Source: Candidatus Micrarchaeota archaeon
GTDB taxonomy: Archaea; Micrarchaeota; Micrarchaeia; Anstonellales; Bilamarchaeaceae
Length of the DNA stretch: 64,000 bases
Direction of reading: 5' to 3'
Assembly (NCBI GenBank): GCA_043821365.1
Contig: JBDRCX010000002.1
Span: 1 to 64,000, forward strand
The translations under genes and the position numbers were made by a program. Within the stretch, counting starts at the first letter, position 1. Each line of letters opens with the position of its first letter. The notes beneath the pieces were generated by a model. That model did no database searches and was not told the origin of the DNA. It saw nothing but the letters and a program-made list of their open reading frames with translations. This document shows, piece by piece, positions 4,030 through 13,682 of the stretch.

Positions 4030-5298
4030 ATGTTTGACCCATTCCTAGTAATAGGAGCCACAATACTGCTTGGTTACTTTTCAATAGCATTTTTTGATAG
4101 AACAAAAATATCCCAAGTTATACTTCTTATGCTGTTTGGGTTTATTCTAGCCCATGTACTTGGTGTTGTTGATGCATCAAATAATTCAGTAATAATCTCA
4201 ATTCTGCCATTTTTATCCACTCTTGCACTTATCATCCTTCTATTCGATGCAGGTCTGACATTTGATGTTGTTTCTGTTGCAAAATCAATACCTCGAAGTT
4301 TTCTATTCACTCTAACAATCTTCTTCTTTACCATGCTCATAATCACACTGGTTTTGTGGGTGTTTTTCGGCTGGCCATTACTTTATGGTGCCCTTCTTGC
4401 TGCGGTTTTAGGTGGTACAAGCTCTGCCATCGTAGTTGCGATGATTGAAAAAACAAGATTGGATAAGGAAACAAAATCAATGCTTGTATTGGAATCAACA
4501 ATAACTGATGCATTCTGTATTATTTTTGCAGTTTTCATAGCGCAATTAATTGCATTGGGAAGTACGCCAGATTTCGGTATTCTGACTGGTTCTCTTGCCA
4601 ATTCAATATTCATGTCAATTGTTTTTGGTACTGTGAGTGCAATTCTTTGGTTGGTAATCTCTAAGCGTTTCCTCATATCAAAATTCAGCTATATGCTTAC
4701 TCTATCAATAATATTCATTCTTTATGCAGTTACTACCTCTTCTGGTTTTAACGGCGGCCTTGCTGTTTTTGTGTTTGGTATAATAATAGGAAACATATCC
4801 GGACTTCTTGGCCTTGTTAATATCAAATGGGGTAATAGGATTAGTCCAACAATACAATTTTTCCAAGGTGAGATAACCTTTTTCATAAGAACATTCTTCT
4901 TTGTATATATCGGTCTTCTCATATCTCCAGATTATTTCCAATTCCCAATAGTTATTTTTGCTGCATTCTTAACATTCCTATTCATAGTATCAAGATCAAT
5001 TGTTTCCAAGTTCTTTTTACCAAGTATTAATTCAGCAGGAAGAAATATGGTTGTTGCAATGATGCCGCGTGGTCTTGCAGCAGCAGTATTAACTACCTTA
5101 CCACTAATCGTGGCAGTTCCAATACCTGATTTCAGGGAGCTTGTCTTTGTCACATTGTTATTCACAAATATTGTTGCAACACTTGGTGTAATTCTATTTG
5201 ATTATTCTCCTCCTGATGATGAATCACTTTCCGAATTGGAGGAAAAAGATAGTAGCAATGTAGACAAGGTAGATGAGGATAAAGACAGCCCCTCCTAA
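4030..5298 (+). CDS. Cation:proton antiporter, CPA1/NhaP type
   Basis: About 12 TM helices; LFDAG, GTSSAIV, LESTITDAFCI, FFFVYIG, MMPRGLAAAVL. Confidence 0.9.
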   Translation: MFDPFLVIGATILLGYFSIAFFDRTKISQVILLMLFGFILAHVLGVVDASNNSVIISILPFLSTLALIILLFDAGLTFDVVSVAKSIPRSFLFTLTIFFFTMLIITLVLWVFFGWPLLYGALLAAVLGGTSSAIVVAMIEKTRLDKETKSMLVLESTITDAFCIIFAVFIAQLIALGSTPDFGILTGSLANSIFMSIVFGTVSAILWLVISKRFLISKFSYMLTLSIIFILYAVTTSSGFNGGLAVFVFGIIIGNISGLLGLVNIKWGNRISPTIQFFQGEITFFIRTFFFVYIGLLISPDYFQFPIVIFAAFLTFLFIVSRSIVSKFFLPSINSAGRNMVVAMMPRGLAAAVLTTLPLIVAVPIPDFRELVFVTLLFTNIVATLGVILFDYSPPDDESLSELEEKDSSNVDKVDEDKDSPS

Positions 5299-6180
5299 TT
5301 TTTTTATTCCTTTGTTTACTGCAGCAACATAGAAAAAAAGTGTATTTGCAACAACTGCAAATAATAATGCAACCATGAATATTGGAAGCTGAACCTCTAT
5401 GGGATTTATTACCGATGCTGTTCCTAAAACAAGAGTTAAATTTGCCATATTGCTTCCTATTGCATCCCCAATAGCAAGTCCATAATGTTTTTTTCTTATG
5501 GCCTGAAGGTCAATTGTAAGTTCTGGCAGCGAGGTTCCCAATGCTATTATTGTTGCACCGATAAAACTCTCAGCAATACCAGCTATTCTTGCAAGTTTAA
5601 CTGCAGAATCAACAACAAATCCAGAACTTATCATGACAAACAGAACACCTATACTGAAAATAATAAATGCGTGAAACGCTTCCTCTTTTTTAACGAGTTT
5701 TTCTTCTTTGCCATCAGCTACTGGTTTTTTCTTTAATGTGTGCCATACATAAACTCCAAAAATCGTCAGAAGTGCAATTCCTTCAAATAATCCAAGAACT
5801 TTTTGCTGTACGTAACTATTGAATACGATATAAACAGATATCACTGTTGTCAATAATAATACAATTGCAATGTCCTTCAGGCTTGATGCATGTATTTTTA
5901 GTTTGTATATAAATGCACCAAGTCCAAGTATCAATAAAATGTTTGTAATGTTTGAACCAAATACATTTCCAGCTGAAATAGCACCTTGGCCTGAGACAGA
6001 TGATATGATTGAAACAGACAACTCTGGAAGGCTTGTTGCAACTGCCAATAATATGAATCCTATGGCCACCTGGCTTACCCTAAAATAATTTGCAAGCTTT
6101 GCAGCACTATCTATCACCGCACTTGATGAACGAGCTAATATGGCTATAGATATGATTAATATTATTGTTTCCTGAATCAT
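5224..6180 (-). CDS. Calcium/sodium antiporter (CaCA, YrbG-like)
   Basis: Two alpha repeats ATSLPEL...GNVFGSNITN and GTSLPEL...GDAIGSNMAN. Confidence 0.92.
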   Translation of the reverse strand: MIQETIILIISIAILARSSSAVIDSAAKLANYFRVSQVAIGFILLAVATSLPELSVSIISSVSGQGAISAGNVFGSNITNILLILGLGAFIYKLKIHASSLKDIAIVLLLTTVISVYIVFNSYVQQKVLGLFEGIALLTIFGVYVWHTLKKKPVADGKEEKLVKKEEAFHAFIIFSIGVLFVMISSGFVVDSAVKLARIAGIAESFIGATIIALGTSLPELTIDLQAIRKKHYGLAIGDAIGSNMANLTLVLGTASVINPIEVQLPIFMVALLFAVVANTLFFYVAAVNKGIKKLGGAVFILIYLVYIATIFFLQFGK

Positions 6181-6223
6181 CCAATAAGCAACTAATTTAA
6201 AGTTTAAATGTTTTACCCTCTCC
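6181..6223. promoter_or_regulatory. Putative bidirectional promoter between divergent antiporter genes
   Basis: 43-bp spacer containing tandem TTTAAA elements (tttaaagtttaaa). Confidence 0.45.
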
Positions 6224-7510
6224 ATGATTTCTTCAATAAAAAAATATTTTCCACTAGTATTATTAGCTGTTTTTTTGTTTCTATTGGCAAGTATTATTAG
6301 AACCAGTATTTTTGGTCATGTTGATGAGGAGGATCATATATATTTTGAAATAGTTTTCTTGTTGTTGCTTGCTGTTTTAGGTGAACTTACTGTTGTTTAT
6401 TTCAAAATTCCTTCAGTCATGATATTAATGATTCTTGGTATACTCATGAGCCCAAGTTTCATAGCACTAACATTTCATTTTATTGAGTCACTCGACCTTC
6501 CAATTTGGATGCCATCAGAACCTCCAGAAATACTTCGTGCTGATAATATAATCCACATCTTTGCTCAACTTGGTGCAATAATCTTGTTATTCAAAGTTGG
6601 TCTTCACAATAAGATGGAAGGTATTTTTTCAAAGGATAACCTTATCGTTGCTTTGTGTGGAATTGTATTCCCATTTCTTATTGGATATTTTTATGCAAGT
6701 TTTTCTGGCGGTAACTTCGCCTACTCTATGTTTGTTGGAGCAGCTTTAACAGCTACAAGTGTTGGGGTTACTGTTGCAATTTTGAGGGAATTTAAACTGC
6801 TGAATGAAAGATTTGCTGAAATAATCATAGGAGCAGCAATTATCGATGACATTCTTGGTTTGCTTGTTCTGTCCTTTGTAATAAACATGACCGGTGAAAC
6901 AGAGTCGTTTGTACCAATAATAATGACATTTATATCTGCTGCAGTTTTTATATTTGGAAGTGTTGTTGCAGGGGATTATTTTGTCAGGTACATGGATCGT
7001 ACAAAATTCAGCCAAATGGTTTTCCTCTCTGTTTTGGCATTTATGCTTCTTTATGCATATTTTGCAGAATTCATAAAATTGTCTGCAATTGTTGGGGCCT
7101 TCATGGCAGGTGTGATACTTAATCGGAGTAAGCATCTTAAAGAAATTGAAGAAAAAACTTACGGTCTGGAACTTCTGTTTATGCCAATTTTCTTTATTTC
7201 ACTTGGTATCCTTGTTGATGTCAATTCACTTGCTATTTTTGCAATACCAATCCTCATAATAACAGTACTAGCAATGCTTAGCAAAATTATCCCCTGTGGT
7301 ATTGCTTCTTTATTTGCAGGTTTATCAAAACGAGATTCTCTTGTTGTTGGTGTTGGGATGGCACCACGAGGGGAAGTGGCTCTTATTGTGGCTTCCTTGG
7401 GTCTTTCCACAGGGGTACTTGCTGTTTCAGAATACTCTGTAATATCTGCAATGGCCCTCATCACCACGTTCCTAGTCCCTCCTTTACTTGGAAAATTGCT
7501 TTCCAAGTAA
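6224..7510 (+). CDS. Cation:proton antiporter, CPA2/KefB-NapA type
   Basis: LLFKVGL, ATSVGVT, AAIIDDILG, FMPIFFISLG, GMAPRGEVALI. Confidence 0.92.
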   Translation: MISSIKKYFPLVLLAVFLFLLASIIRTSIFGHVDEEDHIYFEIVFLLLLAVLGELTVVYFKIPSVMILMILGILMSPSFIALTFHFIESLDLPIWMPSEPPEILRADNIIHIFAQLGAIILLFKVGLHNKMEGIFSKDNLIVALCGIVFPFLIGYFYASFSGGNFAYSMFVGAALTATSVGVTVAILREFKLLNERFAEIIIGAAIIDDILGLLVLSFVINMTGETESFVPIIMTFISAAVFIFGSVVAGDYFVRYMDRTKFSQMVFLSVLAFMLLYAYFAEFIKLSAIVGAFMAGVILNRSKHLKEIEEKTYGLELLFMPIFFISLGILVDVNSLAIFAIPILIITVLAMLSKIIPCGIASLFAGLSKRDSLVVGVGMAPRGEVALIVASLGLSTGVLAVSEYSVISAMALITTFLVPPLLGKLLSK

Positions 7511-7541
7511 GTATTATATTTGGTGTCATCAATAGTCTCTC

Positions 7542-8552
7542 ATGAAAAAATTATGGTTTTTATTTCCAATGTTGATTATTCTTTTTGGATGTTTTGAACA
7601 ATCTACTCCTGAACCCATTGTTCTTGACGAACAATTATCTGTACCTGTACAAAGCAACAACACAACTCAAATTATCGAAACGCAACCAGAACCAACTCCT
7701 TTAGAGATAGCGAATCAGACTGCATTTGAATTTGCTATTTTATCATCCACATACGCCTATGATGGTTTTGGTATGACTCTGCTTAATTATTCTGAAGGCG
7801 ACGAATTCACTTTTACATACCTCTATAATTCACAATATGCTGGCTTTGGAAATCGATCTGAATTCTATCTAAAAAGTTCACTCCGTACTCATACTCTTGT
7901 GTTAACAGTTGTAGATAGTGAAGTTACTTCTGCAATACTTGATGGAGTTTATAACGAACTAGAATTAGGAATGGTTGATGTTGCTGAAACATTTGATTTT
8001 GATTTAGTGAGCCTAGAAACATGCAAAGAATTGGCAATTGATTTTGTGGAACAAAGCAATGTTTTCCAGACAAAAGTATATCAAGGAATGTCTGCTTGGA
8101 CAAACAATGCTAGTGTCACCAGGCTATCGGATACGTTATGTCAGGTTAGGGTCTTTATTCCAACAAGTTCTGACGGACAATATTACGAGTCTGTTTATGT
8201 TTTTGTTGATCATGATGTTGTTTTCTTTCCAAATTCAAATTCCCAACGTAGCTGGATAGACATATATATGGATCCAAATGCAGATTATTCAATTATCCTA
8301 ACACCACTTCCAAATCCACTTTGCCCACCAGGACAACTAATGGCGACTTCAACTCACCTTAAATTCTGCTTTGAACCAACAATAACAAACAACATGCCAT
8401 GTTCGAGTTCTGTTTCATGTGAAAGAGGTGCTTGTGTTAGAACCAGCATGGGCGAATTTGGTACACCTACCAAATGTTTTGATTATCCTTTTGGCTGCAG
8501 ATATTGGGTTGCTGAAAATAACCAGCCTGCAAAATTAGTCTGTCTTAGTTGA
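7542..8552 (+). CDS. Secreted lipoprotein-like protein of unknown function, Cys-rich C-terminus
   Basis: MKK + hydrophobic stretch + LFGC lipobox-like motif; several Cys near the C-terminus. Confidence 0.6.
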   Translation: MKKLWFLFPMLIILFGCFEQSTPEPIVLDEQLSVPVQSNNTTQIIETQPEPTPLEIANQTAFEFAILSSTYAYDGFGMTLLNYSEGDEFTFTYLYNSQYAGFGNRSEFYLKSSLRTHTLVLTVVDSEVTSAILDGVYNELELGMVDVAETFDFDLVSLETCKELAIDFVEQSNVFQTKVYQGMSAWTNNASVTRLSDTLCQVRVFIPTSSDGQYYESVYVFVDHDVVFFPNSNSQRSWIDIYMDPNADYSIILTPLPNPLCPPGQLMATSTHLKFCFEPTITNNMPCSSSVSCERGACVRTSMGEFGTPTKCFDYPFGCRYWVAENNQPAKLVCLS

Positions 8553-8607: not shown

Positions 8608-9321
8608 ATGACTAAAAGCGATCGGGTTCCAACCTGTATTCCTGGTTTTGATGAGTTAATTGCAAACGGTCTAGAGAAAAATAGTATTACTGTGCTAAAA
8701 GGAGGAGCAGGGAGCGGTAAAACAATATTATCACTACAATACCTCCACGGCGGCTGTACAAAACATGATGAAGGTGGGGTGTTTATCAGCTTTTTAGAAT
8801 CAAAAGATTCTGTTTATACAACTGCTAAAAAATTTGGTTGGGATTTTGAAAAATTAGAAAAAGATAAATTATTCAGGTTCATAAAATATACCCCACACGA
8901 GATACAAAAAATAGTTAAAGATGGGGGCGGATCGCTTAGAGACACCATAGAAGCCCTTGAAGCAAAAAGGATTGTTGTTGATTCATTGACTGCATATGGT
9001 CTTGTTTTCAAAACAGACTATGAAACAAATGAAGGTGTGATGAACTTCATGAGCCTTTTGAAATCATGCAACTGTACTACTTTAGTTACTGAAGAATGCG
9101 AAGCAAATCCCAATGAAATAGAAAGTGGAAGATTAAGCTTTCTTAGTGATGGTCTTGTTAAACTTTATCATCTTCGGAAAGAGTATGGTAAATACCGTGC
9201 TCTTGAAGTAGTAAAAATGAGGCATACTGATCATTCAGATAGGATGCATATGTTCGACATTTCTGGTAAAGGAATTGTCATCAGAGAACAATCGGGTATT
9301 TTTGAACGCAAAAATGATTAG
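8608..9321 (+). CDS. Single-domain KaiC/RAD55-like ATPase
   Basis: DRVPTCIPGFDELI, GGAGSGKT, IVVDSL, SDGLVKL, EVVKMRHT. Confidence 0.9.
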   Translation: MTKSDRVPTCIPGFDELIANGLEKNSITVLKGGAGSGKTILSLQYLHGGCTKHDEGGVFISFLESKDSVYTTAKKFGWDFEKLEKDKLFRFIKYTPHEIQKIVKDGGGSLRDTIEALEAKRIVVDSLTAYGLVFKTDYETNEGVMNFMSLLKSCNCTTLVTEECEANPNEIESGRLSFLSDGLVKLYHLRKEYGKYRALEVVKMRHTDHSDRMHMFDISGKGIVIREQSGIFERKND

Positions 9322-9356
9322 AATGCTATTTAATATTTAACCTGTAATCTTTTTTG

Positions 9357-10100
9357 ATGGTTGTAAAGACTGGTGTTACTGGTTTGGATAAACTACTGGA
9401 TGGTGGTTTCCCAGATTATTCCACTGTTCTTGTATCTGGTGGGGCTGGAACTGGTAAAACAATTCTTGCACTTCAATTTTTGTTTGAAGGAATTCAGAAG
9501 AAAGAAAAAGGACTTTTTATAACATTTGAACAAAGCAAAGAAAAAATACTCGACCAGTGCTCTAGATTTGGTTGGGATTTTGAAAAATACGAAAAGCAAA
9601 AACTATTTCGAATTGTTGCCATGGATGATGTTGGAATTGCAAATATCCTCACCAAGATTAAATATAATCTAGATGATTTTAATCCAAAGCGCATGGTTAT
9701 AGATTCAATCACATTTATGTCATTATCTGCCTACTCTGCCAAAAGACTTATTGATCTTGATAAAACAAGTGTGGTGGAGCTTTATGAAGGTGGTAGGGAG
9801 AGCACATCTCCTGAATTTGATGGTCTTATAGTAAGAAAACTGCTAATTGATTTTGTAAAAATACTGCAACACAGGAAAATAAGTACGATTTTAACATCAG
9901 AAATACCAAAAGACAGCACTTGGTTGAGTAGAGATACATTTTCTGAATATGCTTCGGATGGTGTTCTTCTTCTAAAATCTGTTTCTATGGGAACACAGCT
10001 TCATAGGACAATCGAAGTCGTTAAAATGCGCAATACTAAGATTAAGGGTGGCATTTACGGATTTGATTTTCAAAAAAATGGGATCAAACTCAGCGTTTAA
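9357..10100 (+). CDS. Single-domain KaiC/RAD55-like ATPase with internal insertion
   Basis: KTGVTGLDKLLDGG, GGAGTGKT, FITFEQ, MVIDSI, SEYASDGV, EVVKMRNT. Confidence 0.9.
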   Translation: MVVKTGVTGLDKLLDGGFPDYSTVLVSGGAGTGKTILALQFLFEGIQKKEKGLFITFEQSKEKILDQCSRFGWDFEKYEKQKLFRIVAMDDVGIANILTKIKYNLDDFNPKRMVIDSITFMSLSAYSAKRLIDLDKTSVVELYEGGRESTSPEFDGLIVRKLLIDFVKILQHRKISTILTSEIPKDSTWLSRDTFSEYASDGVLLLKSVSMGTQLHRTIEVVKMRNTKIKGGIYGFDFQKNGIKLSV

Positions 10101-10175
10101 GTCTTTTTTATCTGGTGTAACTGTTATAAATATGTAATACTAATGTAGTTTCCAGTATCCGAAAAGTTGGTTCCC

Positions 10176-11279
10176 ATGCCAGTAGGAGATAGCGTAACAA
10201 GTTGGTTTATCCGTAACATAGTTCTGCCTAATGCAGAAGACATAACACATCCTGGTTATATCCTAAGCAAATTCAGTGAAGGTGGACAGACTATTTCTTT
10301 GCGTGAATTCTTTTTTCCTGAGAGTTTTTATGTTGAATTTGAAAAATCTATTGCAAAAAAGTTTGGTAAGAAAGGGGAAGCTAAACTTTATTCAGTTGGC
10401 AAAAGATTTGGTTACCGGTATGCGGTACTTTCCTATTTTAAGAAATATGGTGATCTTGGGAAGAAAAAGTTTCAGGAATTTTTGTACATGTTCGTTCGAT
10501 ATATAGAAGTTATATATGCGAAAAAATTACAACATAAAATGGACGCTGAAAAAAAATTACTTGAGCTTACTGCAGATTCCTATGTTTGCTGTGAAAAAAA
10601 TGGGTATGGTTACTTGCTTTTGATAGGTGCATGGCTTGGAATTTGGGCATTTCTAATGGATGATAAAAAAATAGAAGGAGTTCAGGTTGAATGTCAGGGC
10701 AGAGGAGACAAACGGTGTAAATTAGTCTGCAAACCAAATGGCACTTCTTTTACAGAAGAAAATATGGATGATCTTGAGGAAGATCAGGGTACATATGCAC
10801 TCCTAAATACTGTCCATCCATCTACAAATGATAACTATTCTCTTAAGGAACTTATTGAGAACCAAATATTCACTTACCAGAGTGGTAGACTATTCTTCGA
10901 TAAAGAAAGAATGGTTGGTATCGAAGCAAGTTTGTATTATATGGTGGACAATGCATTTTCGGATAAATCTTCTAATGACATATTATTTACAAGCGCTTTC
11001 AATAGTGGGAAAAAAATATCAGTAGGTAAAGATGTAATCTTTGTCCAGAGATTTCTAGCTTGCATTGGATTTGGCGATGTTCAAATCATTCCGAATGGGA
11101 AAAAATTCCAAGTTATTTTCAATCATTTTCCATGGACAAGATTTTCTGAAGAATGCAAATTTACCCTTTTGGCTGGGTTTACCTCAGGATTATTAAGCGG
11201 TTGCACAGGTAAGAAAATATCCTTCACAAAAATCTCAAAATCTGTTGAGGCAGATGGTTTCCATGTTCAAATGGCTTAA
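10176..11279 (+). CDS. Tandem V4R (4-vinyl reductase-like) ligand-binding domain protein
   Basis: LYSVGKRFGYRY...VECQGRGDKRCKLV in the first domain; second copy ERMVGIEAS...AFNSGKK...CIGFGDV...GFTSGLLSG. Confidence 0.75.
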   Translation: MPVGDSVTSWFIRNIVLPNAEDITHPGYILSKFSEGGQTISLREFFFPESFYVEFEKSIAKKFGKKGEAKLYSVGKRFGYRYAVLSYFKKYGDLGKKKFQEFLYMFVRYIEVIYAKKLQHKMDAEKKLLELTADSYVCCEKNGYGYLLLIGAWLGIWAFLMDDKKIEGVQVECQGRGDKRCKLVCKPNGTSFTEENMDDLEEDQGTYALLNTVHPSTNDNYSLKELIENQIFTYQSGRLFFDKERMVGIEASLYYMVDNAFSDKSSNDILFTSAFNSGKKISVGKDVIFVQRFLACIGFGDVQIIPNGKKFQVIFNHFPWTRFSEECKFTLLAGFTSGLLSGCTGKKISFTKISKSVEADGFHVQMA

Positions 11280-12144
11280 AACTCAGTTTTTCTTTATTCA
11301 TCATCTTTTCAAGTTAGAAGATCAACTTGCAAATTCTCTTAGTTTTGTTGTTGGTGTAATACTTGCATTTGGTGGAATACCGCCCCTTTCTCTTTCTCTT
11401 CTTTATGGCTTAGTTGCGGTTTGTTGCGCTCTTTTAGGTATAAATCTACTCAATCACATAACTGATGTTGAAATAGATAGGATAAACAAACCCCACCGTC
11501 CACTTCCCAGCCGGAAAATGAAAGAAGGTACAGCAATTTTGATTACTGCGTTTCTATTCACCCTTTCTTGTGTAACAGCAATTTTGGTTTCATTTCCCGT
11601 ATTTTTTCTTACATTCCTTTACATTTTTTTAGGAGTGTTGTATAGTGCTGAACCACTAAGGTTAAAAGAAAGATTTTTGGTTAATAATCTTGCGGTTGCA
11701 GTTTTCTATAATTTTATTAATTTCCTAATTGGCTGGTCGATTTTTCAACCAATTTTTGCTGCTCCATATCCCCTGCTCATTCTTTTGTTTACATATGATT
11801 TCATTGCAATAAATTCCAAAGACTATCATGATCTTGCAGGTGATAAGGAATTTGGGGTTAAGACAATTGTTTCATTGTTTGGGGTTGAAAATGCAATGAA
11901 AATCGATAAGGGTGCCCACTTTGCCATTCAAATTACTTTCATTCTTCTGGCTCTTCTTGGGTTCTTACCATCATACATCCTTGCATTCAGCATCATTACA
12001 TTAGTTTTTGTTTTTATGATTTTCCTAGACCTAAGCCACAATAAGAATTTTATGCGGTTCTATCACATGTCCTTTGGTCTCCACATATTTTTCAGAATTC
12101 TTATTCTGATTTTGTTCTTTACTCATATACTGGGACTAATGTAG
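11263..12144 (+). CDS. UbiA-family intramembrane prenyltransferase
   Basis: NHITDVEIDRINKPHRPLPS and KDYHDLAGDKEFGVKT Asp-rich motifs, YSAEPLRLK, about 8 TM. Confidence 0.9.
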   Translation: MFKWLKTQFFFIHHLFKLEDQLANSLSFVVGVILAFGGIPPLSLSLLYGLVAVCCALLGINLLNHITDVEIDRINKPHRPLPSRKMKEGTAILITAFLFTLSCVTAILVSFPVFFLTFLYIFLGVLYSAEPLRLKERFLVNNLAVAVFYNFINFLIGWSIFQPIFAAPYPLLILLFTYDFIAINSKDYHDLAGDKEFGVKTIVSLFGVENAMKIDKGAHFAIQITFILLALLGFLPSYILAFSIITLVFVFMIFLDLSHNKNFMRFYHMSFGLHIFFRILILILFFTHILGLM

Positions 12145-12177
12145 TTTGGAGATTATCTAAATTATAATAAGAAAAAT

Positions 12178-12384
12178 AGCCTCAGGAGAGAGTTGAACTC
12201 CCGACCTACTCCTTGTGCCTTTTAGGAAAAGGCACCCCAAAACAAGGGTGCTAATTTTGCGTCCTTCAGTCCGCAAAATAGATACAATACAAAATCCAAA
12301 AGGATTTTGCAATCAGATGGTTTTTGTTAAACTTTTTTCCAAAAAGTTTACGAGAGAGTCGCTCTACCACTGAGCTACTGAGGC
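12178..12384 (-). tRNA. tRNA-Thr(CGU) with 135-nt intron at 37/38 (intron 12214..12348)
   Basis: Exon1 GCCTCAG TA GCTCAGTGGTAGAGC G ACTCT CT CGT A; exon2 A GGAGT AGGTC GGGAG TTCAACT CTCTC CTGAGGC T; no clear BHB at the junctions. Confidence 0.85.
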
Positions 12385-12407
12385 TTACTTTGAAAAAATA
12401 GTTTGAT

Positions 12408-13682
12408 TTAGTTTATAAAAGCCTCGTACCGCACAACTTCACCCTTTTCAAAATAATATACACTATTCTTACCCTGCTGTTTTGAAGTTTGTACTGCCGT
12501 ATTTGCGTTGGCAAATATTGTTTCAACCATTTGTTCTACTTTTTGATGAGACAAACACCGTGTTCCTTTTGCACCTAAGATTTGTGAAATTTCCGTAGAC
12601 ACAATTTCATCCACACTTGCTACTCCCACACTGCATGTCACATTTCCATCTGTAAATTTTCCTCTTATTCTATCTGCTATTTCAAGAGCTTCTTTTTTGC
12701 TAACTCCTTTTATCACACCTGCAAATTCATCCCCACCCCATCTTGCTACCATGTCTTCAGGTCTTATTGATGCTTTTGCAGTTTCTGCTAATCTTCTCAA
12801 TTGTTCGTTTCCTTTTTGATAACTAAAATCATTCAGACGTTTAAGATTGTCAAGATCTATCAAAAACACCCAGACATTATTCATTTCACCTAGGATCACT
12901 CTTCTTATAGCTCCTATTAATTCTGCATTAAAATCAACAAATTTTGTGAGTGTAGTTATTGCATCAAATTTATGTGTAATGATAAATGCAATTTGTGAAG
13001 CAGCCTCTATTGCCACATGGGCACTCCAATAGGCAGCATCTAAACCAGTTAAATCTGAGTCTTTACAACGTAGATCCCCTTCAAATACTACCATCCCTGA
13101 TGGATAGCTTGGATCTCTGTAATAAAATGGCATGAAAGCTATTGACCCAGGTGTACTTCCCTTTCTTGCTCTTTCAGTATCGAAAATTGTACACCCACGA
13201 TTATTCATATCAAGGTCATCAAAAATAAGCATGATTCCACTTTGATCAACAAATGTTGGTTTTCTTGTGGCAAATGCATGGTCTCTCATTGTCCTAATTC
13301 TATGTTTTCCAATTATGCAATCTCTCTCATTTGATCCATAAACAACAAATTCATTTCTTTCTCGCATAACTGAAACTCTATGTTCAAGTTTACCTACTGA
13401 ACCTTTTGCTACTCTTGGAAGCAGATACACTCCACAGCATGTGGAATATTCAAAGATTCCCATCAGTCTTGCTATGTAATCTCCAAGTTTTGGGTAGTCC
13501 TCACTCATCATTCTACCTGTTTTGAACATTGCCATTGTAATGCCGTAATCTGGTATCACAGATGTGATTAATCGTCTACCAATCCTATCTGGTTCTAATA
13601 ATTTTTCTCCTAAATTAGGTCTACTATCGGATAGTTTTTGTATGCCTAAGGTATCAGCAACTGCAATTCTTCTGGGCGCCAT
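12408..13682 (-). CDS. GAF-GGDEF protein (diguanylate-cyclase-like dinucleotide cyclase)
   Basis: FLIDLDNLKRLND, IRPEDMVARWGGDEF, VTCSVGVA, SKQQGKN; upstream GAF-like SIAFMPF...GMVVFEG...AASQIAFII, then DAITTL. Confidence 0.88.
   Translation of the reverse strand: MAPRRIAVADTLGIQKLSDSRPNLGEKLLEPDRIGRRLITSVIPDYGITMAMFKTGRMMSEDYPKLGDYIARLMGIFEYSTCCGVYLLPRVAKGSVGKLEHRVSVMRERNEFVVYGSNERDCIIGKHRIRTMRDHAFATRKPTFVDQSGIMLIFDDLDMNNRGCTIFDTERARKGSTPGSIAFMPFYYRDPSYPSGMVVFEGDLRCKDSDLTGLDAAYWSAHVAIEAASQIAFIITHKFDAITTLTKFVDFNAELIGAIRRVILGEMNNVWVFLIDLDNLKRLNDFSYQKGNEQLRRLAETAKASIRPEDMVARWGGDEFAGVIKGVSKKEALEIADRIRGKFTDGNVTCSVGVASVDEIVSTEISQILGAKGTRCLSHQKVEQMVETIFANANTAVQTSKQQGKNSVYYFEKGEVVRYEAFIN

Follow-up and report, generated by a model that had tools for sequence, protein, structure and literature searches.

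A single-domain KaiC-like ATPase (KaiC2), a soluble double-V4R protein (V4R2) and an accessory UbiA-family prenyltransferase form a conserved gene trio in DPANN archaea. We found it in a 64,000-nucleotide stretch of contig JBDRCX010000002.1 from a Candidatus Micrarchaeota archaeon (the window). The functional link between the three proteins is real, and it suggests a so far undescribed system for sensing or handling isoprenoid lipids. The reading that we prefer, and to which we give about even weight, is a three-part module for an accessory prenyl-lipid branch, with KaiC2 as a ligand-gated switch. Both V4R domains and the KaiC-like ATPases of archaea have a wide distribution, and to our knowledge there is almost no experimental information on what either of them senses or controls. 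The literature that we searched contained nothing linking V4R or KaiC-like ATPases with prenyltransferases, and nothing relevant on KaiC together with V4R, archaea included.

The first-pass annotation of the window had described four co-oriented genes, and the open reading frames, Pfam matches and predicted folds agree with this layout: two single-domain KaiC-like ATPases are followed by V4R2 and by a UbiA-family prenyltransferase gene that overlaps it (Table 1). The ATG at 10176 was taken as the start of V4R2. It is kept in a related genome, G288, where the TTG at 10167 is not. The overlap of 17 nt between V4R2 and UbiA that had been noted earlier holds for the UbiA start at ATG 11263, while starts at ATG 11254 and TTG 11245 give 26 and 35 nt, respectively. 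The nearest named relative of the source organism is Ca. Bilamarchaeum (Micrarchaeia, DPANN).

Table 1. Features of the KaiC/V4R2/UbiA locus (window coordinates)
Feature	Position	Strand	Description
KaiC1	8608-9321	+	237 aa, single-domain KaiC-like RecA-superfamily ATPase; a lineage-specific add-on
KaiC2	9354-10100	+	248 aa, single-domain KaiC-like ATPase with insert; the conserved V4R2 partner
TATA-like TTATAAA	10124-10130	+	46 nt 5' of the V4R2 ATG; weak candidate for an internal promoter
V4R2	10176-11279 (alternative start 10167)	+	367-aa soluble protein, two PoxR/MopR/V4R-like domains
V4R2 N domain	~10209-10763	+	predicted PoxR-like fold
V4R2 C domain	~10767-11276	+	predicted PoxR-like fold
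UbiA	11263-12144 (alternative starts 11245, 11254)	+	293-299 aa, accessory UbiA-family membrane prenyltransferase

Of the 401 genomes of the phylum, 43 contain V4R2. In 28 of these 43 its direct neighbour (within ~150 bp) is a UbiA gene at Pfam level, and four more cases lie at contig edges. The remaining loci with readable context have, in this place, a gene resembling PcrB/GGGPS or a cis-prenyltransferase, or else a highly divergent UbiA-like gene, the last of which comes with a SAM methyltransferase gene. Genes of the geranylgeranyl reductase (GGR) family are recurrent near V4R2, and CarS was seen once. Among 59 V4R2 loci, an isoprenoid enzyme is present within two genes at 51, a KaiC at 49, and both at 43; with 2-3 UbiA and ~8 KaiC-like genes per ~1,200 genes, the expected chance adjacency is ~0.5-1%. 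The V4R2-UbiA adjacency spans 12 families of this phylum and a second searched genome group, and precomputed Pfam hits place the trio on independent public contigs as well. In an apparent second DPANN phylum, V4R2 occurs in 18 of 301 genomes; at all loci there (12/12), a KaiC and/or a UbiA/GGR gene lies close to V4R2. The neighbourhood search that had been proposed earlier thus found V4R-UbiA adjacency to be strongly conserved, and the recurrent linkage with both a KaiC and an isoprenoid enzyme (43/59) backs the functional tie that had been suggested between the ATPase, the V4R protein and the prenyltransferase. The distribution is patchy: the module is present in 7 of the 40 genus genomes searched, counting the window genome, and is therefore dispensable.

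Both ATPases are clear matches to Pfam PF06745 (cut-off 26.6), with 179.6 bits for KaiC1 and 183.1 bits, in two stretches, for KaiC2. Their Walker motifs are intact (KaiC1, GGAGSGKT at residue 32 and IVVDSL at 122; KaiC2, GGAGTGKT at residue 29 and MVIDSI at 114). A circadian double-domain KaiC was ruled out by protein length, as two tandem domains take ~500 aa, and on the circadian KaiC model TIGR02655 the proteins reach 98.8 (KaiC1) and 111.1 bits (KaiC2) against a cut-off of 546. In order to find the counterparts of V4R2-adjacent KaiCs from other genomes, we compared them with the eight KaiC-like paralogs of the window genome. KaiC2 was the best match for 26 of the 33, which marks it as their ortholog, and KaiC1 was the closest for only one. 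The conserved partner of V4R2 is therefore KaiC2 only, with KaiC1 as a local add-on, and the earlier treatment of the KaiC pair as a unit does not hold. Archaeal single-domain KaiC-like ATPases have been proposed as signalling hubs (Makarova, Galperin and Koonin, 2017, as cited in PMC5847659). KaiC1 and KaiC2 resemble these in their single domain, their intact Walker motifs and their genomic tie to a putative sensor protein, but the third member of the module is an enzyme and not a transcription factor.

V4R2 scores 19.1 bits against the Pfam V4R model PF02830, and no single stretch passes; as the cut-off is 31, the V4R assignment is sub-threshold by sequence. A precomputed PF02830 match is likewise present in only 1 of 37 relatives. 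The AF2 model (pLDDT 90) was more informative. The N-terminal half (residues 12-196) matches PoxR with Z 12.7 over 168 aligned residues, within the family of PoxR/MopR/DmpR sensor domains, and the V4R protein MJ1460 with Z 9.9. The C-terminal half, folded alone (pLDDT 94), matches PoxR with Z 10.7 over 139 aligned residues, DmpR with 9.9 and MJ1460 with 8.7, while unrelated structures score at most 5.3. The predicted fold of both halves thus confirms the tandem V4R/PoxR-like domains that had been read from the sequence, although the Pfam score alone stays below its cut-off. A CxxGxGDxxC segment of V4R2 (C173, C181) aligns with the C-x7-C segment of the zinc-site cysteine cluster of MopR, and the start of the C-terminal half aligns with MopR residues 15-62. 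In the V4R2 family, Cys 139 and Cys 181 are invariant and Cys 173 and Glu 167 are kept in at least 90%; the cysteine cluster is absent from the C-terminal half. Neither Pfam nor the AF2 model indicated a domain beyond the two V4R-like ones, in particular no AAA+ or HTH, and among the longer relatives searched there were no fusions of V4R2 with KaiC or with an enzyme, which is weak evidence. With 413 representatives at 50% identity for E <= 1e-3, and 187 for E <= 1e-30, V4R2 constitutes an uncharacterised family without a Pfam model of its own.

The prenyltransferase gene of the cassette encodes a clear UbiA-family protein (127.8 bits to PF01040, cut-off 34.2) with about seven hydrophobic segments. 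Numbered from TTG 11245, its Asp-rich motifs are intact (N70/D74/D78 in N-x3-D-x3-D and D193/D196/G199/D200 in D-x2-D-x2-G-D). Both are kept in all 27 V4R2-adjacent UbiAs, which also share the extra Asp of the second motif (27/27, versus 14/72 of the other copies). By fold family, Asp-rich motifs and best matches among PDB sequences (ChlG, 9sau, at 8.8e-12; DGGGPS, 6m31, at 2e-10), the enzyme resembles the branch of DGGGP synthase (DGGGPS), chlorophyll synthase and homogentisate phytyltransferase (HPT). It differs from this branch in remaining below every NCBIfam equivalog cut-off: it reaches 73.3 and 67.7 bits on the DGGGPS models (cut-offs 296 and 353) and 91.6 bits on the ChlG/BchG model NF005742 (cut-off 313), so that an identity as chlorophyll synthase ChlG/BchG was discarded.

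A housekeeping DGGGPS identity was rejected as well. On contig 6, the window genome encodes another UbiA, which scores 151.5 and 145.8 bits on the DGGGPS models, 239 bits on NF009523 (cassette copy, 106 bits), and matches the DGGGPS 6m31 at 1e-19. In the phylogeny, the comparison with the housekeeping DGGGP synthase that had been asked for, the contig-6 copy falls in a 41-row clade to which each genome contributes about one copy. The cassette UbiA is not a member of this clade, and nor is any other V4R2-adjacent UbiA. The ether-lipid path of the window genome is encoded elsewhere in full (HMG-CoA reductase, GGPP synthase, GGGPS, CarS and the separate DGGGPS-like UbiA). V4R2-adjacent PcrB and cis-prenyltransferase copies, too, are second, low-scoring paralogs. 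To judge from these comparisons, the prenyl-transfer enzymes linked to V4R2 are always accessory, divergent paralogs. In the genus, orthologs of the cassette UbiA (>= 45% identity) occur only with V4R2 directly upstream (5/5 genomes). A single clade of V4R2-adjacent UbiAs was rejected by the AU test (p 5e-9; 52 rows, LG+G4), in which the set of other UbiAs includes one copy (L133) that may itself be a neighbour of V4R2, truncated where its contig ends. Because the V4R2-adjacent UbiAs do not form a single clade, there has been an exchange of the partner enzyme, which fits a generic role in prenyl handling but does not narrow down the chemistry.

In the module that we propose, the accessory membrane prenyltransferase (DGGGPS/ChlG/HPT type, motifs intact) would use a polyprenyl diphosphate to make a specialised prenylated product. 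Soluble V4R2, in putative contact with the enzyme and with KaiC2, would bind a hydrophobic polyprenyl compound, either substrate or product of the enzyme, in one or both of its PoxR-like pockets. Pocket occupancy would be passed on to the KaiC2 ATPase, which would then, in the presumed direction of control, turn the branch on or off. Because the module has no DNA-binding output, such control would act at the protein level. The logic would be that of a PoxR/DmpR sensor domain gating its ATPase, here split over separate proteins. The PoxR/MopR/DmpR sensor domains (XylR_N + V4R) of NtrC-family activators share with V4R2 the fold of both halves, and the Cys-x7-Cys segment of V4R2 can be aligned with MopR. 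They also combine a small-molecule-binding V4R-type module with a P-loop ATPase, a coupling suggested for V4R2 and KaiC2 by gene linkage. V4R2 differs from them in having two sensor domains and no AAA+ or HTH, in the separate ATPase of RecA/KaiC type, in sequence (13-17% identity), and in its partners, which are prenyltransferases and not phenol catabolism genes.

The sensor logic is favoured by the match of both V4R2 halves to phenol-sensor domains that gate ATPases and by the specific partnership with ATPases of the KaiC2 type. Counting against a switch, the module contains no output domain, and so no defined target; counting against a prenyl ligand, the nearest structural matches of V4R2 bind phenols, not isoprenoids. 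A prenyl-type ligand is plausible. The tie of V4R2 to prenyltransferases of three folds and to GGRs makes polyprenyl compounds the most likely class of ligand.

Several other explanations have to be weighed against this module. V4R2 could be a soluble lipid or substrate carrier, or a chaperone, that passes a hydrophobic substrate or product to or from the prenyltransferase, with KaiC2 gating or powering loading and release. We consider this possible, if somewhat unlikely. It would agree well with the tight translational coupling of V4R2 and the enzyme gene (4-nt overlaps at many loci), with the recurrent GGR-family genes, and with partner enzymes of three unrelated folds that have only polyprenyl substrates in common. 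V4R2 also shares its fold (Z ~9) with TRAPP Bet3 and archaeal TRAPPC3-like proteins, and Bet3 was solved with a covalently bound palmitate whose chain is held in a hydrophobic channel (6aq3); covalent lipidation is documented for Bet3 only, and its context is vesicle tethering rather than a prenyltransferase operon. The V4R protein BchJ has been suggested as a chaperone or carrier in bacteriochlorophyll synthesis (PMC7242693), a pathway whose genes bchP (for a GGR) and bchG (for a UbiA-type synthase) lie next to each other in photosynthesis gene clusters (PMC6052148). A V4R protein, a UbiA of the ChlG/DGGGPS branch and the GGR family thus meet within one pathway, and by analogy this resemblance may be a lead to the function of the module. 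However, that pathway has no KaiC and a tetrapyrrole as its substrate, BchJ has a single V4R domain, and the chaperone role of BchJ is itself only suggested. Why a carrier should need a KaiC-like ATPase is not obvious, yet the conservation of KaiC2 equals that of the enzyme, and most archaea perform these reactions without such a carrier. Structurally, both halves of V4R2 are closest to phenol sensors, which could speak for a pathway to a prenylated aromatic (a prenyl-phenol, quinone or chromanol-like lipid), with V4R2 binding a phenolic acceptor, not the prenyl chain, and thereby regulating or feeding an HPT/UbiA-like aromatic prenyltransferase. Beyond its own clade, the nearest sequence relatives of the cassette UbiA carry the annotation homogentisate phytyltransferase, chlorophyll synthase or 4-HB prenyltransferase, the extra Asp is common to the adjacent UbiAs, and several V4R2 loci contain FAD enzymes and SAM methyltransferases that weakly resemble UbiG/UbiE. 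We nevertheless think such a pathway quite improbable: the annotations of the relatives are automatic, partners that resemble PcrB or cis-prenyltransferases are not known to prenylate aromatics, the FAD enzymes have their highest scores with the GGR family and not with UbiH, and aromatic-precursor genes were not seen at the V4R2 loci.

The first-pass annotation had envisaged the UbiA product as a prenylated, lipid-like molecule, possibly for quorum or host sensing, with V4R2 as receptor and the KaiC pair as transducer; we take this to mean a diffusible signal. A specialised small molecule would be in keeping with the conservation of the trio and with the accessory, fast-evolving nature of its enzyme. 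The patchy, accessory distribution also speaks for this model, and sensing of small molecules is proven for the V4R fold. On the other hand, the 59 loci revealed no conserved export, secretion or output component, nothing connects the module with cell-cell contact, a single KaiC is conserved instead of a pair, and the partner genes (GGGPS-like, GGR, CarS, cis-prenyltransferase) belong to bulk lipid chemistry. Quorum or host sensing is unsupported, and we give the diffusible signal only a slim chance. Its synthase-receptor-transducer logic is allowed as one version of the prenyl-lipid module, but with PcrB-, cis-prenyltransferase- and GGR-like partners, control of a lipid branch or the handling of substrates is at least as good an explanation as the synthesis of a signal. 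Finally, there might be no dedicated system, the cassette UbiA being an ordinary DGGGP synthase that lies beside KaiC and V4R genes by accident. UbiA genes do occur in every genome searched, and the Ca. Bilamarchaeum ortholog of the cassette UbiA is automatically annotated as DGGGP synthase. We regard this explanation as hardly credible, given adjacency across 12 families and a second genome group, the separate DGGGPS-like copy on contig 6, the position of the cassette UbiA outside the housekeeping clade and its strict co-inheritance with V4R2 in the genus. The automatic label should be corrected to accessory paralog.

The prenyl-lipid module is compact, conserved and testable. It combines one KaiC lineage with one double-V4R family (~190-400 sequence clusters), both linked to GGRs and to accessory prenyltransferases whose three folds are unrelated, across apparently two DPANN phyla. 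It gives direct access to the question of how DPANN archaea regulate or traffic isoprenoid lipids, with relevance to membrane biology and host dependence. A more far-reaching version, which we judge unlikely, is that V4R2 and KaiC2 are a portable prenyl-lipid sensing switch, to which accessory prenyltransferases of three different folds have repeatedly been recruited for a lineage-specific prenylated lipid or signal, possibly at the symbiont-host membrane interface. If true, the enigmatic KaiC-like ATPases of archaea would for the first time have an input defined by its ligand.

Neither flank of the cassette was counted to the module, as the upstream 336-aa open reading frame (7542-8552) and the downstream GGDEF gene are kept only in the closest relative, G288. 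A role in defence was also dismissed: PADLOC defence models had no match for KaiC1, V4R2, UbiA or the upstream 336-aa protein, and their matches to KaiC2 were just at P-loop level (< 20 bits). The TTATAAA that had been noted ahead of V4R2 is present and kept in G288, where it forms a conserved block inside a spacer that has otherwise diverged between the two genomes. Its count in the window is at chance level (32 versus 30.9 expected), and the motif was therefore not accepted as statistical evidence; on the strength of the conserved block, it is a weak candidate for an internal promoter.

An ORF scan recovered the four co-oriented genes that the first-pass annotation had placed at 8608-12144. 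Walker A and Walker B motifs are intact in both KaiC-like ATPases, which score far under the cut-offs of the NCBIfam models for circadian KaiC. The third gene, V4R2, starts at an ATG that the closest relative, G288, shares; an upstream TTG is not kept there. Its reported overlap with the fourth gene, the cassette UbiA, exists; the length of 17 nt is one value in a range of 17-35 nt, since three in-frame UbiA starts are possible. The TATA-like motif noted earlier is also present. TTATAAA occurs 32 times in the window against 30.9 expected by chance, which is no enrichment; the copy ahead of V4R2 is, however, the conserved block of an otherwise diverged spacer common to the window and G288. The window genome is a DPANN Micrarchaeia assembly of 1.2 Mb, 87% complete, with Ca. 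Bilamarchaeum as its nearest named relative.

Coordinates of the cassette genes and of features in and around V4R2 loci (window positions unless a locus is named)
Feature	Location	Strand	Length	Description
Na+/H+ exchanger genes	4030-7510			two copies plus Na/Ca exchanger
Upstream ORF	7542-8552	+	336 aa	directly upstream of KaiC1
KaiC1	8608-9321	+	237 aa	single-domain KaiC-family ATPase; PF06745, 179.6 bits (Pfam)
KaiC2	9354-10100	+	248 aa	single-domain KaiC-family ATPase; PF06745, 183.1 bits (Pfam)
TTATAAA	10124-10130			TATA-like motif
V4R2	10176-11279	+	367 aa	double-V4R protein
Cassette UbiA	11263-12144	+		UbiA-family membrane protein; 127.8 bits (Pfam); about 7 hydrophobic segments
tRNA-gene halves	12150-12400	-		5' half ends at about 12350; 3' half at about 12171-12205
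GGDEF gene	12408-13682	-	424 aa	diguanylate-cyclase domain; 70 bits (Pfam), TIGR00254
Na+/H+ exchanger	L149, 6990-8354			near KaiC-V4R2
Na+/H+ exchanger	L155, 4860-6152			near KaiC-V4R2
Tandem V4R2 genes	L037 (G189:C89), 5525-7869			two copies
Amino-acid dehydrogenase	L058, 950-2215	-		Glu/Leu/Phe/Val type, after V4R2-UbiA
Amino-acid dehydrogenase	L065, 7965-9176	+		Glu/Leu/Phe/Val type, after V4R2-UbiA

V4R2 reached 19.1 bits with the V4R Pfam model, below the cut-off of 31, and had no NCBIfam match. Thirty-five relatives went into an AlphaFold2 model with a pLDDT of 90. Over residues 12-196 it resembles the domains with which PoxR, MopR and DmpR sense phenols, at Z 12.7 across 168 aligned residues; Z is 9.9 for MJ1460, a V4R protein of M. 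jannaschii, and about 9 for proteins of the Bet3 type. The C-terminal half, modelled alone (pLDDT 94), matched PoxR (Z 10.7), DmpR (9.9), MJ1460 (8.7) and YslB (8.6), with unrelated entries at 5.3 or less. When the family profile was compared with MopR, the C-x7-C segments aligned with each other, and the start of the second half aligned to MopR residues 15-62. Two cysteines, 139 and 181, never vary in the family, and Cys 173 and Glu 167 hardly do. The earlier claim of a tandem V4R protein holds at the level of predicted fold, as each half matches PoxR-type domains. Together, the fold matches and the MopR alignment identify V4R2 as a duplicated PoxR/V4R-type ligand-binding module without a further domain. 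As a double small-molecule-binding protein it shares its fold with ATPase-gating sensors. At 50% identity the family has 413 representatives at E<=1e-3 and 187 at E<=1e-30; members are either unannotated or bear the labels "hypothetical" or "predicted hydrocarbon binding protein", and clusters that look alike are recorded from DPANN archaea. No family model exists for V4R2.

Of 401 genomes sampled from the phylum, 43 have V4R2; they represent 29 of 155 genera. Comparison of its coordinates with all PF01040 matches across these 43 genomes placed a UbiA gene within about 150 bp in 28; four V4R2 copies were at contig ends. V4R-UbiA adjacency, proposed at the outset as a test, is thus conserved. 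In 11 of the 43 genomes a canonical UbiA neighbour was absent, and the neighbourhood was read in all of these except G385 (short contig). G071 and G166 have a PcrB/GGGPS-family gene as the neighbour, G344 a UPPS-family cis-prenyltransferase gene (as does G101, counted among the 28, at its second V4R2 locus), and G097 a divergent UbiA-like gene. Elsewhere V4R2 was accompanied by a SAM methyltransferase gene and then by a cis-prenyltransferase gene (G125, G257) or a very divergent UbiA-like gene (G020, G086, G286, G393). Genes of the geranylgeranyl reductase (GGR) family (TIGR02032) recur in seven V4R2 loci.

Public contigs with precomputed Pfam hits provided an independent view of the neighbourhood. 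One arrangement is UbiA-GGR-V4R2 followed by an inverted KaiC, a second KaiC-V4R2-PcrB, and a third KaiC-V4R2-UbiA followed by inverted GGR and CarS. In a fourth, V4R2-GGR is followed by an inverted UbiA, and a KaiC-like gene closes the locus. A second genome group, centred on a public record labelled Aenigmatarchaeota by NCBI, was taken to be a second phylum because none of its listed genomes appeared in the first search. V4R2 was present in 18 of its 301 genomes, and all 12 fetched loci had KaiC and/or UbiA or GGR nearby. In a conservative tally of 59 V4R2 loci, two being one and the same place, an isoprenoid enzyme adjoins V4R2 in 45 and is at most two genes away in 51; KaiC is at most two genes away in 49, and both are found in 43. 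With 1-5 UbiA genes per genome, about eight KaiC-like genes in the window genome and some 1,200 genes in all, adjacency by chance is expected at about 1% or less. Incidental adjacency of the three is excluded; KaiC, V4R2 and prenyl-transfer genes form a conserved trio.

KaiC genes lying directly next to V4R2 in other genomes were compared with the window genome's own eight KaiC-like paralogs. KaiC2 was the best match for 26 of 33 and KaiC1 for only one; V4R2 has a dedicated KaiC lineage. This preference places KaiC2 in the conserved core, with V4R2 and the prenyl-transfer enzyme, and KaiC1 outside it as a local addition. The KaiC pair, treated as a unit in the first-pass annotation, is not conserved as such; KaiC2 alone is.

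The cassette UbiA was rejected as the housekeeping DGGGP synthase (DGGGPS). A separate UbiA on contig 6 scores higher (NF009523, 239.5 against 106.5 bits; DGGGPS models, 151.5 and 145.8 against 73.3 and 67.7 bits), and the cassette copy lies outside its clade. Among solved structures, the contig-6 protein best matched M. jannaschii DGGGPS (1e-19; ChlG 1e-7), whereas the cassette protein matched ChlG (8.8e-12) and DGGGPS (2.3e-10) to a similar degree. A tree of 103 UbiA sequences, all from V4R2-positive genomes, has a 41-row clade with roughly one gene from each genome, among them the contig-6 gene; no V4R2-adjacent gene falls in it. The 27 V4R2-adjacent UbiAs form four faster-evolving groups outside that clade, and a single clade of them was rejected (AU p 5e-9, 52-row subset); the partner was therefore recruited or exchanged more than once. 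The accessory enzyme of the trio is intact. Both Asp-rich motifs are kept in all 27, and an extra Asp (D-x2-D-x2-G-D) is found in 27/27 against 14/72 other copies. V4R2-adjacent PcrB-like and cis-prenyltransferase-like genes are second, lower-scoring paralogs, with a better-scoring copy elsewhere in each genome. In the window genome, HMG-CoA reductase, a GGPP-synthase-type enzyme, GGGPS and CarS are all encoded outside the cassette, so that its core ether-lipid pathway is independent of the cassette. Queried across 40 genomes of the genus, the cassette UbiA had orthologs of at least 45% identity only in the window genome, G288, G262, G236 and G714; V4R2 lies directly upstream in 5/5, G714 having been examined after the prediction. 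The Ca. Bilamarchaeum ortholog is auto-annotated as DGGGP synthase.

None of the module's protein families is new, and signalling modules built around KaiC have been put forward before; the literature searched contained no link of V4R proteins or KaiC-like ATPases to prenyltransferases. The partner enzymes have three unrelated folds (UbiA, PcrB TIM-barrel and cis-prenyltransferase), and these and the GGRs share only polyprenyl substrates. The simplest inference is that a polyprenyl compound is the ligand of V4R2. Our preferred reading, at about even odds, is that a split sensor-ATPase switch governs an accessory prenyl-lipid branch. V4R2 and KaiC2 would then be sensor and ATPase divided over separate proteins, and control of the branch would be exerted at the protein level. 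The module includes no DNA-binding or export component. The first-pass annotation had inferred that the UbiA product is sensed by V4R2 as receptor and relayed to the KaiC pair as transducer; this model, with the product as a diffusible signal, we consider improbable.

It is somewhat unlikely that V4R2 is instead a carrier of the BchJ or Bet3 kind; a chaperone idea exists for BchJ (PMC7242693), with BchG/BchP as context (PMC6052148). A prenylated-aromatic pathway, with V4R2 binding the phenolic acceptor, would fit its resemblance to phenol sensors, the HPT/ChlG-like relatives of the cassette UbiA and the methyltransferase genes in V4R2 loci; we hold it to be as improbable as the diffusible signal. 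The switch and its rivals concern a module of good experimental tractability.

Several further observations were made around the cassette. The upstream ORF, for which Pfam, NCBIfam and PADLOC gave no match, and the GGDEF gene, convergent with the cassette, are conserved in position only in G288. Two tRNA-gene halves, recognized by eye and separated by a long hairpin-rich insert, were called by neither ARAGORN nor Rfam (E<=0.01). Na+/H+ exchanger genes lie near KaiC-V4R2 in the window and on two unrelated contigs, which may be chance or reflect a loose tie with membrane/ion homeostasis. The amino-acid dehydrogenase genes belong to two distant genomes, and four other V4R2 loci share an aminotransferase-class gene. 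P0195, a 189-aa predicted protein on a 1.2-kb metagenome contig, has precomputed KaiC (PF06745) and UbiA (PF01040) hits and is either a genuine fusion/overlap or the product of faulty gene calling where KaiC and UbiA adjoin. Besides the tandem V4R2 genes of G189, fragments with in-frame stops accompany an intact copy in G655 (G655:C18), G554 and G687, which hints that the module has undergone duplication and decay.
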